DNA of 64,000 nt, taken from assembly GCA_021801645.1 (NCBI GenBank), contig JAJYXT010000065.1, positions 7,501 through 71,500 on the forward strand, given 5' to 3'. Of the stretch, positions 11,544 to 63,767 are shown piece after piece. The notes beneath the pieces are model-generated. The model searched no databases. It had not been told where the DNA came from and saw only the letters and a list, made by a program, of their open reading frames with translations. The number at the start of each line of letters is the position of its first letter. The stretch's first letter is position 1. The DNA comes from a bacterium. GTDB lineage: Bacteria; Chloroflexota; Dormibacteria; Aeolococcales; Bog-877. Both the position numbers and the translations under genes were made by a program.

Positions 11544-13319
11544 TCAGGCACGGCCAAGGGTGCGGGCTTGCAGCGCCACCTGCAGGACCACCCGGGTCTC
11601 GGGGTCGTCCAGGGAGAGCTGGAGCAACGCCTCGAGGCGCTGCACCCGGTAGGTGAGGGTGTTGATGTGCACCTTGAGCCGGCGCGCTGCGGCCCGCTGG
11701 TTCCAGCCCTCCCCGGCCAACGCCTCCAGAGTCGGCAGAAGTGGGGTCGTGCGCCTCCGTGAGTACTCCAGGACGGGCCCCAGGGTCTCGCCCACGAAGC
11801 GGTCCACCGCCGCCGGGTCGCGCACCTCCAGCAGGAGGCGCAGTGCCCCCAACGAGCGATAGGAAGCCACCAGCCGGCTCCGCCCTCCCCGGCGCGAAAG
11901 GCGCAGCGCCTGCCTCGCCTCCTCGTATCCCCGCGGCAGCTCGTCGGCCCCGTTGGCCAGGTTGCCGATGCCCACCGAGACGCTGAGCCGGCGGTCCAGA
12001 CCGCTCACCAGCCGCGAGACCTCTCGGCCGAGCTCCTCCACCTCGGGGAGCGAGGGGCGGGCGGCATCACGGCCCGGGGCCTCGGCCGGCACCAGCAACA
12101 GGGTGGCGGCTCCCCGGGAGGCCACCACGGCCCCGGGGTGGCGGGGCCGGCAGAACTCGACGAGGTCACGGGAGAGACGCTCCTGGAGGGGCCCGGACTG
12201 GAGGGCGGTGGCGGAGCGCTCGTCATCCGGCTCTAGGAGCAGCAGCCAGGCCTGGGCCGGGATCCGGAAGCCCAGCCGCTCGGCCCGCTGGGCCAGCCGC
12301 CGCGCCTCCTCGGGGTCCCCTCCGGCGGTGATCAGCCCCTCGATCAGGTCGCCCCGCAGCCGACGCTCCACCTCGGCAGCCGCCCGCTCCTTGAGGAGCT
12401 CCAGCGCCACTACGGTGGCGCCCTGCTCCAGGGCCCGCCGGCGGGAGGCGGAGCCACCGAGGTCGCCCTCAAGGGCGAGGACCGCGACCAGCTCGGAGCC
12501 GGCCCGGACCGGGGTCAGTGTGAGCTGCTGGGGTGGTCTCCCGTGGTGGACCGCCACCGGCCCCTCGGCCCCAGCCGTCAGCTGCGCCGGGAGCTGGAGC
12601 CGGCGGGGGCCCGGCCCCCGCCCCAGCCCGTGCTCCAGCCGGAACCCCAGGGGGTCATAGACGCCCACCGCACCCCCGGCCAGCCCCGAAATGGCCTCCA
12701 CGATCCGGGCCAGACCCGCCCCGGTGAGGACCAGCTCGGTGAACCGCTCGTGGGTCAGCTGCGCTAGGCGGACCTCCTCCAGCTGCTCCTCGAGGCGGTG
12801 CTGGAGCTCGCTGCGCTCCAGGACCCCGGCGATCGCCCCGGCGATCGCCGACAGGAAGGCCACCTCCTCGGGTCGGAACTCCCGTCGCACCACGGTCTGC
12901 ACGTTCAGGACGCCGACCATGCGGGGCCCCGCCTCGATCGGGACCGAGAGCATGGAGGTGAACCGCGCCTCGTCCACCCCCTCCACCCACTTGAAGCGGG
13001 GGTCCCGGGCCACCTCGGAGACTGCCAGTGGCTGCCGCGAGGCGGCCACGGCGCCGGTTATCCCCTCCCCCAGGGGCATCACCACCCGTCCCAGCGCCGC
13101 TTGGTTCAGTCCGTTGGTGGCGGTGAGGACCAGCCCGCCGCGAGCCTCGTCCTGCAGGTACAGCGCGCAGACGTCCGCATCCATCGCGCCGGTGGTCTGG
13201 CCGATCACCAGCTCCAGCAGGCGGTCCCGGGACATGGTGGAGGCGGCGGCCAGCGCCAGCTGTTGGAGGAAGAGCAGCTCGCGCAGCTCGCGGTCGTCCC
13301 GCGGAGGGTCAGCCGGCGT
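11544..13319 (-). CDS. GAF-domain PucR/CdaR-family transcriptional regulator; probable non-canonical start
   Basis: N-terminal GAF (GEGITG, SMLSVPI, GVLNVQ) and C-terminal PucR HTH (AARRLKVHINTLTYRVQRL). The first GAF helix (RELLFLQQL...ST) lies upstream of the first ATG at 13235; ACG at 13319 follows GGAGG. Confidence 0.85.
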   Translation of the reverse strand, partial: TPADPPRDDRELRELLFLQQLALAAASTMSRDRLLELVIGQTTGAMDADVCALYLQDEARGGLVLTATNGLNQAALGRVVMPLGEGITGAVAASRQPLAVSEVARDPRFKWVEGVDEARFTSMLSVPIEAGPRMVGVLNVQTVVRREFRPEEVAFLSAIAGAIAGVLERSELQHRLEEQLEEVRLAQLTHERFTELVLTGAGLARIVEAISGLAGGAVGVYDPLGFRLEHGLGRGPGPRRLQLPAQLTAGAEGPVAVHHGRPPQQLTLTPVRAGSELVAVLALEGDLGGSASRRRALEQGATVVALELLKERAAAEVERRLRGDLIEGLITAGGDPEEARRLAQRAERLGFRIPAQAWLLLLEPDDERSATALQSGPLQERLSRDLVEFCRPRHPGAVVASRGAATLLLVPAEAPGRDAARPSLPEVEELGREVSRLVSGLDRRLSVSVGIGNLANGADELPRGYEEARQALRLSRRGGRSRLVASYRSLGALRLLLEVRDPAAVDRFVGETLGPVLEYSRRRTTPLLPTLEALAGEGWNQRAAARRLKVHINTLTYRVQRLEALLQLSLDDPETRVVLQVALQARTLGRA

Positions 13320-13818
13320 CGCCGTCCTCCGGCCTGGTCACCGCCCCAGACCGCCCCCCGCTCTTGGCCACCAGCTGCACCCCGTCCACCCGCGCCCACG
13401 GATCCACGCTCTTCAGCATGTCGATCACGGTGAGCGCGGCCACGGCGACGGCGGTGAGGGCCTCCATCTCCACCCCGGTCGCGTCCTCGCAGCGGGCCTG
13501 AGCCCGGAGCCGGATGGCCGGCGCGTCCCGGTCGAGCTCGGCCTCCACATCCACATGCCGAAGCGCCACCGGGTGGCAGAGCGGGATCAGCTCCGGAGTC
13601 CTCTTGGCCGCCATGATCCCCGCCAGTCGGGCCACCGCCAGCACGTCCCCCTTGGTCAGCTGGCCCGTTGCCACCGCCTCGGCGGCCTCGGCGCTGATGC
13701 GCACCATCCCTTCGGCTGTCGCCTCCCGGCGGGAGACCGGGCGGTCACCGACATCGACCATGCGGGCCCGGCCCCGTTCGTCCAGGTGGGTGAGCCGGTG
13801 GCCTCCCTCGGCGGCCAT
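13309..13818 (-). CDS. moaC: Cyclic pyranopterin monophosphate synthase
   Basis: LTHLDERGRARMVDV, KGDVL, AAKRTPELIPLCHP, TGVEMEALTAV, KSGGRSG. Confidence 0.96.
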   Translation of the reverse strand: MAAEGGHRLTHLDERGRARMVDVGDRPVSRREATAEGMVRISAEAAEAVATGQLTKGDVLAVARLAGIMAAKRTPELIPLCHPVALRHVDVEAELDRDAPAIRLRAQARCEDATGVEMEALTAVAVAALTVIDMLKSVDPWARVDGVQLVAKSGGRSGAVTRPEDGDAG

Positions 13819-14444
13819 CAGCGCGCCCCCTGGCAGTACGCGGCGGCTGGTGGATGGGAGGAGCTGTAGTACACGCCGACCACCACCCGGCCCGGGGGAG
13901 CGGCGGCACAGGCGAAGGAGACCTCGCGTCCCTGGGCGACCAGCGCGAGGTTGAACTGGGGGCTGAGCCCGTGGGTGAGCAGCTCCGGGAGCAGCTTGGG
14001 TAGGCCCAGCTGCCCGATCGATAGGCCCTTGAAGGACATGGAGACCACCGTACCCCCTCCAGATCGAAGCTCAACGGGCCCGCTCACGACGATGGTGTGG
14101 CCCAGGATCGCGGTGTCCCCGCTCACCACGATCTGCCCCCCGACGGAGTGGACCTCAAGGTTCCCCAGGCCCACGTACCCGGGCAGGCTCTGCTGAAGCA
14201 GGCTGGTCGCCTCGGAGTCGGTGAGCTGGATCAATGCCACCGGCTGCTGGGCCGCCAGCGCCGACTCCACCCCGCTGGCCACGGCCAGCTGGACCGCCGC
14301 CGGGCCCGCCGGCTCCACGGGGGCGAAGGCCGGCGCCGCCAACATCTGGTGGACGCCGTACAGGAAGATGGCCGCCACCACCAGCAGAGGCAGGAGGCAT
14401 CCCAGGCAACCCCCGAGGCAGCTGCGCCGTATGAAGGAGAACAC
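13818..14444 (-). CDS. Hypothetical single-pass membrane protein
   Basis: GTG 14444 just after the NUDIX stop; RRSCLGGCLGCLL then a TM segment and a beta-rich extracytoplasmic region; coupled to moaC. Confidence 0.7.
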   Translation of the reverse strand: MFSFIRRSCLGGCLGCLLPLLVVAAIFLYGVHQMLAAPAFAPVEPAGPAAVQLAVASGVESALAAQQPVALIQLTDSEATSLLQQSLPGYVGLGNLEVHSVGGQIVVSGDTAILGHTIVVSGPVELRSGGGTVVSMSFKGLSIGQLGLPKLLPELLTHGLSPQFNLALVAQGREVSFACAAAPPGRVVVGVYYSSSHPPAAAYCQGAR

Positions 14445-14445
14445 C

Positions 14446-63063: not shown

Positions 63064-63298
63064 GCGGCACCTCCTCCTGGGGTAGCGGCACCGGGTCGTA
63101 GCCCCCAGCGTGGAAGGGGTTGCAGCGCAGAATCCGCCGCACCCCCATCAGCCAGCCCCGTCCGAAGCCGTACAGCTGAATAGCCTCATACGTGTAGTGG
63201 GAGCAGGTCGGCTCGTACCGGCAGCCCCCCACCAACCCGAGCACCGGGCTCAGCGAGACCTGGTAGAAGGTGATCAGCCAGAGGGACAGCTTCTTCAA
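63053..63298 (-). CDS. yidD: Membrane protein insertion efficiency factor
   Basis: [25 protein letters not shown]. Confidence 0.95.
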
Positions 63299-63624
63299 AG
63301 CGCTCCTGCCCGGGCCAGCACCCGGTGCAACGCCTCCCGGAGCTCCGGGAAGGTTGCCGGGAGCGCCGCCGCGGTGGGGATCACCACCACATCCACCGGC
63401 CCCATGGAGGGGAGCTCCCGATCACAGAGGGCGCGCAGCCGGCGGCGGGTCCGGTTGCGGGCCACGGCTCCCCCAACGCGCCGGGAGACGGCGAACCCGA
63501 TCCTGGGATGGCCGTCCGGGCGCGGGCGCACCTGAACGCGAACGAGAGGGTCCCCGGCGCCGCGCCGCTCAGCCCGCACTGCCGCGAAATCCCTGGAGCT
63601 GCGGAGGCGGTTACGCCGTCTCAC
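63295..63624 (-). CDS. rnpA: Ribonuclease P protein component
   Basis: [35 protein letters not shown] overlaps the rpmH stop. Confidence 0.95.
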
Positions 63625-63767
63625 CGCACCCGGGCGGGCGTCAGCCGGCGCCGGCCCTTGAGGCGCCGCCGCTTGAGGACGCGCACTCCCCCCGGGGTCG
63701 ACATCCGGGCGCGAAACCCGTGCACCTTCCTCCGATACCGCTTCTTGGGCTGGTAGGTTCGCTTGAT
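63621..63767 (-). CDS. rpmH: 50S ribosomal protein L34 with ATC start codon
   Basis: (I/M)[55 protein letters not shown] 7 nt upstream of ATC; in-frame TAG five codons upstream. Confidence 0.95.

Follow-up and report, generated by a model that had tools for sequence, protein, structure and literature searches.

The window analysed here, by which we mean the whole 64,000-nucleotide (nt) stretch G000:C79:7501-71500, belongs to a 2.13-Mb, 100-contig, 85%-complete metagenome-assembled genome (MAG) of Candidatus Dormibacterota with a G+C content of 70%. The source organism, an uncultured bacterium from soil and sediment, has its nearest named relatives at the rpmH locus among Candidatus Dormibacteraeota/Dormibacteria MAGs. 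Five genes of the window, encoding ribosomal protein L34 (rpmH), a superfamily-1 helicase, protein-L-isoaspartate O-methyltransferase (pcm), an S51-family peptidase and a GAF-PucR regulator (Table 1), had been listed in an initial annotation, four of them as lacking a canonical start that would include the conserved N-terminus and the helicase for having its best Shine-Dalgarno box (GGAGGA) in front of CTG 36465. We compared these genes with their orthologs in 30 relatives of the same order, which span two families (f1 and f2) and 16 genera and include four unpublished genomes (G014, G017, G026 and G029) that are pointed out wherever a count depends on them, and every coordinate of the five start sites was verified in the window sequence. 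The listing withstood this comparison: in all five genes conserved coding sequence precedes any in-frame ATG, GTG or TTG, and the related genomes retain both the upstream segments and the near-cognate codons.

Table 1. Genes with near-cognate start codons in the window and the elements around their starts (window positions).
Feature	Position	Strand	Details
GAF-PucR regulator	11544..13319	-	non-canonical start, probably ACG 13319-13317; less likely ACG 13325 or a CTG a few codons further on
GGAGG before GAF-PucR	13326..13330	-	6 nt upstream of ACG 13319
GGAGGA before helicase	36450..36455	+	9 nt upstream of CTG
Mini-ORF of three codons, GTG GCG CCC TGA	36457..36468	+	stop overlaps helicase CTG (CTGA)
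Superfamily-1 helicase (AAA_11/AAA_12)	36465..39032	+	proposed start CTG 36465-36467
pcm (protein-L-isoaspartate O-methyltransferase)	43635..44249	-	proposed start CTG 44249-44247
CTGA junction	44246..44249	-	TGA 44248-44246 of upstream gene overlaps pcm CTG
Gene upstream of pcm	44246..45094	-	stop overlaps pcm start; own start as predicted in the ORF list
SPFH/band-7 gene	54719..55579	+	TGA 55577-55579 overlaps S51 start (CTGA 55576-55579)
S51-family peptidase	55576..56292	+	proposed start CTG 55576-55578
rpmH (ribosomal protein L34), 48 codons	63621..63767	-	proposed start ATC 63767-63765, stop TGA 63623-63621
Shine-Dalgarno AGGAG of rpmH	63775..63779	-	7 nt upstream of ATC

The disputed N-terminal segments bear the mark of translated sequence. 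When genomes within the genus were compared to one reference, differences at codon positions 1/2/3 numbered 0/0/4 in rpmH, 0/0/7 in the helicase, 33/40/69 in pcm, 14/7/43 in the S51 gene and 6/6/27 in GAF-PucR, counts that do not represent independent events. Third codon positions hold the most differences in all five segments, a concentration which indicates that the segments are translated in the proposed frame. Neither frameshifts nor stops interrupt these segments across up to 30 genomes, and identical near-cognate codons recur across up to 30 independently assembled genomes, a recurrence that goes beyond chance. In pcm, rpmH and S51, as in folB and rnc elsewhere in the genome, the near-cognate codon sits where relatives carry ATG, GTG or TTG, the match being only approximate for GAF-PucR, and a ribosome-positioning signal, either a Shine-Dalgarno (SD) sequence at working distance or a stop-start overlap, is present at the near-cognate starts.

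At rpmH, the frame opens after TAG 63782-63780 and offers no ATG, GTG or TTG ahead of the conserved KRTYQP. The Pfam Ribosomal_L34 profile (44 positions) covers residues 2-43 of the protein begun at ATC, and the first canonical codon comes only at residue 15. Among the 30 related loci the start codon is ATC in 25, ATA in two, and ATT, CTG and ATG (the latter in G021) in one each; without the four unpublished genomes the tally becomes ATC 22, ATA 2, ATT 0, CTG 1 and ATG 1 (n = 26). A GGAG-type box stands at the matching distance before the start in most of the 30. When rpmH loci were drawn from all bacteria (n = 80), the homologous codon was ATG in 60, with the remainder mostly having an ATG one codon upstream, and ATC in five, namely four Dormibacterota-like records and one labelled Actinomycetes. 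The ATC start of L34 is already called by NCBI annotation: L34 records of Candidatus Dormibacteria/Dormibacteraeota have 48 residues and begin M-KRT[YF]QPKK, with the M at the position of the ATC codon, and versions of 68 and 77 residues from other sources (P0001 and P0005) are begun at upstream in-frame codons. Directly downstream of rpmH lies rnpA (window 63295-63620, minus strand), the open frame of which extends back through rpmH in a different frame, and rnpA may be coupled to rpmH translation.

The proposed starts of pcm and the S51 gene both lie in a stop-start overlap with the gene before them. The stop-to-stop frame of pcm (43635-44804) runs for 244 codons before it reaches its first canonical codon, ATG 44072. 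This ATG is 59 codons downstream of CTG 44249, and the conserved VPRE and GQT.SQP motifs precede it. In the alignment to Pfam PCMT, residue 20 counted from CTG 44249 corresponds to profile position 21, and the first canonical codon is residue 60. The site could be assessed in 14 loci (L011 was excluded because it lies at a contig edge) and reads CTGA in 10 of them, two of which are unpublished, ATGA in two and GTGA in two. A start at CTG 44273 was also considered and is less likely than CTG 44249, as the ATG and GTG codons of the relatives fall at the 44249 site. For the S51 gene, the first canonical codon (GTG 55651, residue 26) lies behind a conserved N-terminal segment, and Pfam Peptidase_S51 begins at residue 12. 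The junction is CTGA in 6/6 same-genus loci, in which the first canonical codon is found at +25 to +62; in three genomes of another genus (G008, G013 and G016) an in-frame CTGA lies upstream by a few codons, and the nearby starts are ATG in G010, GTG in the unpublished G017 and TTG in the unpublished G014.

The helicase frame contains an in-frame GTG (36504) and an ATG downstream of the proposed CTG, and the alignment with order-level relatives sets in at query residues 56-58, coinciding exactly with CTG 36465. All 15 f1 loci in which the site can be assessed have this CTG (L168 is truncated at a contig end), as do 9/10 further loci, which gives 24/25 overall. L189 departs from the pattern with a CTC, preceded four codons earlier by an in-frame TTG, and L188 retains the CTG and carries an in-frame GTG four codons before it. 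The frames of G021 and G023 open 5 codons ahead of the CTG, and no canonical codon occurs in them before +23. Manual reading of the sequences revealed a mini open reading frame (mini-ORF) of 3-4 codons before the CTG in 20/25 loci (among L162-L177 and L188-L197): in 15/15 f1 loci it has three codons (GTG GCG CNC TGA) and its TGA overlaps the helicase CTG, and in 5/9 f2 loci a 4-codon version with a TTG or ATG start overlaps the CTG in like manner. The SD lies 0-2 nt from the mini-ORF start versus 9-10 nt from the helicase CTG and is thus too close to serve the former, and the mini-ORF may either be a start-stop element that supplies the CTG with ribosomes or simply belong to an extended SD. 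That the mini-ORF is the true helicase start, followed by a frameshift, was rejected on the basis of these spacings and of the absence of a slippery site.

In GAF-PucR, the frame opens after TGA 13340-13338, has ACG codons at 13325 and 13319, and reaches its first canonical codon at ATG 13235, exactly where the Pfam GAF domain begins. The peptide RELRELLFLQQL..AAST, which lies upstream of this ATG, is conserved in 16/16 GAF-PucR loci, and Met 13235 itself is replaced by Ile (ATC) in L160 and by Val in L161 with the upstream peptide retained. Other genera have ATG or GTG ~13 codons ahead of LRELL, and within the genus the same site reads ATG in two genomes (G003 and G004), ACG in three and ACC in two. 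The GGAGG box and the second ACG (13319) are retained in 8/8 same-genus loci. Judged from these alignments, GAF-PucR requires a non-canonical start, and ACG 13319, our best guess, is probably the codon in use.

The rest of the genome was searched with a gene list from a simple home-made codon-usage caller (1,989 ORF-genes), and frames were taken as candidates when they showed coding signal for 10 or more codons ahead of the first canonical codon beyond the upstream neighbour. Whole-open-frame tblastn against syntenic contigs was abandoned because most genes were flagged, a conserved upstream gene also aligning in its alternative frame, and was replaced by a synteny test confined to the stretch beyond the upstream gene. 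Pfam searches covered 80 candidates in all, in two batches (40 of 57 candidates, then 40 of 68 weaker ones). In the first batch, 16 candidates have a domain that begins 4 or more residues ahead of the first canonical codon, and a stricter re-check retained 10 of them: infC, a LivM-like permease, FolB, MDMPI_N, Inositol_P, BPD_transp_1_N, PIN, MBL, RNase III and GFO_IDH_MocA. The other six (Caroten_synth, CDP-OH_P_transf, YggS, LspA, MM_CoA_mutase and MerR) were set aside as ambiguous, with a canonical codon 5-14 codons inside the upstream gene, and three cases held to be probable (two ABC ATPases and RNase J) were dismissed on account of plain upstream ATG/GTG/TTG codons. The second batch confirmed FUR and PHP and otherwise comprised 1 transposase fragment and 37 frames that were uninformative or fine with a canonical start. 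The two fabD-like genes of this genome begin at an ordinary ATG or GTG.

Together, 12 proven near-cognate starts outside the window and 5 inside it amount to 17/1,989 ORF-genes (0.85%), which is a lower bound. With 5/68 ORF-genes the window is enriched relative to the genome, and the rate of 4-5 in roughly 70 genes given in the initial annotation overstates the genome-wide frequency. On the five window genes the Pfam criterion would confirm 3/5 and the coding-signal scan flagged 4/5; extrapolating from this sensitivity, rather than counting, we roughly estimate a true total of ~30 genes, or 1-3%. Unambiguous starts (276 genes) comprise 151 GTG, 114 ATG and 11 TTG, and TGA is the stop codon of 1,552/1,989 ORF-genes.

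The near-cognate starts occur in two contexts. Five belong to free-standing genes and have a GGAGG-type box 6-9 nt upstream in every case (rpmH ATC, infC ATA, LivM-like ATC, helicase CTG and GAF-PucR ACG), and nine operon genes (pcm, S51, folB, rnc, MBL, GFO, PIN, FUR and PHP) start at CTG within the CTGA of the upstream gene, most of them without an SD at a usable distance. The Inositol_P gene likewise has CTG-A, but no upstream gene was called there. As a control, we scored same-strand gene pairs lacking any canonical start up to 15 codons from the junction and found a positive coding score in 15/31 gaps in the CTGA frame versus 4/37 in the other frame (Fisher p = 0.0009). The folB junction reads CTGA in G000 (the source genome), G003 and G012 and has ATG or GTG in G008, G011 and G010, and the rnc junction reads CTGA in G000, G003 and G011 and CTGATG in G008. 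Weak start codons gather at overlaps: TTG accounts for 47/295 canonical 4-nt overlaps versus 11/276 unambiguous starts overall. A slippery heptamer (X XXY YYZ) was looked for at the CTGA junctions examined, including those of pcm and S51 (...GCCGGCTGAGG and ...GAGGGCTGAGC), and none was found.

With regard to the machinery of start-codon discrimination, infC, the gene of initiation factor 3 (IF3), has a non-AUG start codon in 30/30 loci (ATA in 19 and ATC in 11) with a conserved SD. In the source genome its ATA lies 7 nt past AAGGAGG, the IF3_N match opens at residue 14, and no canonical codon is available before residue 37. Pfam recovers the two IF3 domains over their full length, and retention of a non-AUG infC start in 30/30 loci makes sense only if IF3 still discriminates. 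The three anticodon-stem G:C pairs of the initiator tRNA are retained in 30/30 loci, the C-terminus of S9 is the usual ...TKR, and an RsmD-family homologue (PF03602) is present; 16S rRNA was searched for in the MAG and not found. The initiator tRNA gene (G000:C74:61841-61913, outside the window) has U1 opposite A72, a weak pair versus the usual mismatch, and in the relatives (L323-L352) position 1 is U, C, G or A with A72 and the GGG/CCC anticodon stem fixed. Set against these data, the proposals of the initial annotation fared unevenly. Its suggestion that the lineage uses near-cognate starts recurrently is upheld, and its SD-driven and termination-coupled routes fit the two contexts. By contrast, the general relaxation of start-codon selection that it envisaged finds no support in infC, the tRNA stem, the S9 tail or the RsmD homologue, none of which points to a general loss of discrimination, and instead of scattered relaxed starts we find particular codons conserved site by site. 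The IF3-sensitive regulatory layer that it raised is a conjecture.

We favour the reading, with a probability of roughly 0.7, that the near-cognate codons are real translation starts which have been inherited and maintained in Candidatus Dormibacterota and which are of two kinds. At the free-standing genes, a strong and well-spaced SD would put the 30S subunit on AUC (rpmH and LivM-like), AUA/AUC (infC), CUG (helicase) and probably ACG (GAF-PucR), where the ordinary initiator tRNA (fMet-tRNA) would read the near-cognate codon with one mismatch, and the output of such starts is presumably low and IF3-sensitive, as is known for infC. At the operon genes, the three bases of the start CUG would be shared with the upstream gene, whose UGA it overlaps (CTGA), mostly without a usable SD; the just-terminated ribosome most likely re-initiates on the spot, and the weak start codon would be tolerated because the ribosome is already positioned. 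As far as the alignments go, it is established that coding sequence is present upstream of the canonical starts, that the near-cognate codons are conserved and that ATG or GTG can take their place at the same site; the mismatch reading by fMet-tRNA, the re-initiation step and any regulatory use of these starts are inferred. A bolder synthesis, in which CUG is a routine fourth start for just-terminated ribosomes, the helicase is fed likewise via its mini-ORF, and rpmH and infC form a small IF3-sensed regulon, seems to us speculative and rather unlikely as a whole. By a rough extrapolation, ~1 in 12 of the 4-nt overlaps would be CTGA. Were the synthesis true, the AUC/AUA/AUU start of rpmH would make the production of L34, and of the RNase P protein whose gene follows directly, dependent on how much IF3 is available.

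Several observations weigh against the reading that we favour. C precedes TGA in 530/757 non-overlapped genes and thus is the commonest base in this position anyway, so that a CTGA junction alone proves nothing, and of the CTGA junctions with long gaps no more than roughly one in two has the appearance of coding sequence. Among the cases with Pfam support, six turned ambiguous once canonical codons inside the upstream gene were allowed, and the MDMPI_N, Inositol_P and BPD_transp_1_N genes lack a settled start codon. Nor is the exact start of GAF-PucR fixed, since the ATG site of G003 and G004 varies and only the second ACG is conserved. Finally, the gene list comes from a crude caller applied to an 85%-complete MAG.

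The starts might be real and yet owe their existence to non-adaptive drift, an account which disputes only the cause and sees the CTG starts as a by-product rather than a regulatory layer. At 70-72% G+C, replacement of ATG or GTG by CTG would be nearly neutral at coupled junctions because re-initiating ribosomes need little from the codon. The switching of the same junction between ATGA, GTGA and CTGA from genus to genus (pcm, S51, folB and rnc), the lack of a common function among the affected genes, the genome G+C of 0.70 and the enrichment of the weak TTG at overlaps all accord with drift. However, the AUC/AUA/AUU of rpmH and the CUG of the helicase are kept order-wide together with their SD boxes and look selected, and a change from ATG to ATC does not raise G+C; we regard drift as a possible but doubtful explanation. 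A global relaxation of start-codon fidelity through an altered IF3, initiator tRNA or P-site, as the initial annotation had inferred, could draw on the 17 proven cases (many for one small genome), on the use of four different near-cognate codons, on the excess of GTG over ATG among unambiguous starts (151 vs 114) and on the variability of the initiator tRNA among relatives at position 1, which faces A72 and can be any of the four bases. This explanation is improbable in view of the AUA/AUC start of infC with its SD conserved in 30/30 loci, an arrangement used elsewhere for IF3 autoregulation, of the full-length IF3 domains, intact tRNA G:C pairs, S9 tail and RsmD-family homologue, and of the confinement of the near-cognate starts to two special contexts in which they are conserved site by site.

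We attach very little weight to the proposal that the proteins truly begin at the first downstream ATG or GTG and that the upstream segments are untranslated or the genes decaying. Canonical codons do exist downstream in all five genes, and in GAF-PucR the domain boundary coincides with Met 13235; but truncation would strip the core of the L34, PCMT and S51 domains, differences are concentrated at third positions in all five segments without frameshifts or stops in up to 30 genomes, and Met 13235 is Ile or Val in two relatives that retain the upstream peptide. Least plausible of all is that assembly or sequencing errors created the CTG, ATC and ACG codons, or that a programmed -1 frameshift fuses the genes at CTGA. 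The genome is a draft MAG in 100 contigs, yet the codons are shared by independent assemblies of seven species of the genus and by further genera, and near-identical sequence is present in sequencing runs from several separate studies, an agreement between independent assemblies by which assembly error is excluded; frameshifting is at odds with the lack of a slippery heptamer at the CTGA junctions read and with the partner genes being unrelated.

The closest precedent for real near-cognate starts maintained in a lineage is Deinococcus-Thermus, for which starts at ATC (dnaA), CTG (rpsL and Deide_03051) and ATA (infC) have been described, the relevant part of the study giving four genes proven by N-terminal mass spectrometry in about 3,400 (Baudet et al. 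2009/2010, PMC2830850). As in Deinococcus, lineage-conserved ATC, CTG and ATA starts are found in core genes and came to light via conserved N-termini upstream of canonical codons, and both lineages have an infC ATA and a CTG start in a folate-pathway neighbour gene (PMC2830850). Unlike in Deinococcus, the cases here number at least 17 in ~1,990 and are inferred from sequence alone, they concern different genes (rpmH, the helicase, pcm, the S51 peptidase and others), and over half of them lie where a stop and a start overlap as CTGA, an arrangement that the corresponding part of that paper does not describe (PMC2830850). By this sequence evidence the trait is real and conserved and occurs more often than in the only case published before, and it belongs with a phenomenon already known rather than forming a novel type of system. 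Literature searches on Dormibacterota start codons and on non-canonical rpmH starts found no paper on the trait among the matches listed.

It is well established that infC is autoregulated through its AUU/AUA start codon, and this non-AUG control is also mentioned in the Deinococcus paper (PMC2830850). The Dormibacterota infC resembles that system in its AUA/AUC start and conserved SD, and rpmH has the same AUH pattern (H being A, C or U) with a conserved SD, the difference being that an IF3 response of rpmH and the other genes is here hypothetical. To our knowledge, L34 is not an IF3-controlled gene, and an AUC retained order-wide on a ribosomal protein gene suggests that start-codon-based control extends beyond infC. 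Translational coupling by termination-reinitiation at 4-nt ATGA/GTGA overlaps was reportedly described by Huber et al. in 2019. The junctions found here resemble this class in joining co-directed genes by a 4-nt stop-start overlap (NTGA) that reads ATGA or GTGA in sister genera; unlike in that class, the start codon in the overlap is CTG and not ATG, GTG or TTG, and the junctions thus depart from its ordinary members. In the sections concerned, a 2023 paper on termination-reinitiation deals with ATGA and TGATG overlaps and turns to non-canonical starts only to explain rare -5 overlaps (PMC10666635), and in a 2025 review the terms 'non-AUG', 'near-cognate' and 'CUG' do not occur (PMC12548453). 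The CTGA junctions provide a natural experiment on the demands that a re-initiating ribosome makes on its start codon, a question which that review leaves open in the debate on 30S versus 70S scanning (PMC12548453). In practical terms, gene callers limited to ATG, GTG and TTG would truncate, over-extend or miss about 1-3% of genes in a widespread soil phylum, among them rpmH, rnc, folB, pcm and infC, and the miscalled starts would distort protein families, marker-gene counts and metaproteomic databases.

Three further observations were made outside the window. A carotenoid-synthesis-family membrane protein gene (G000:C57:87062-88051, minus strand, locus L198) has no canonical codon for ~100 codons past the upstream stop, and its start could be a CTG one codon after the upstream TGA (TGAGCTG) or a TTG 10 codons inside the upstream gene, which leaves the case ambiguous. 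The genome also encodes a tRNA-Sec (anticodon TCA). Lastly, in a ClpC-like gene (G000:C74:67767-68744, plus strand, locus L236), the sole canonical codon excludes the conserved-looking ERFSERAKAVLA just upstream, the only near-cognate codon nearby is an ACG, and a 6-codon ATG mini-ORF in a different frame ends in TGA right before ERFSERAKAVLA, an arrangement that could reflect an assembly indel, a frameshift or another odd start.

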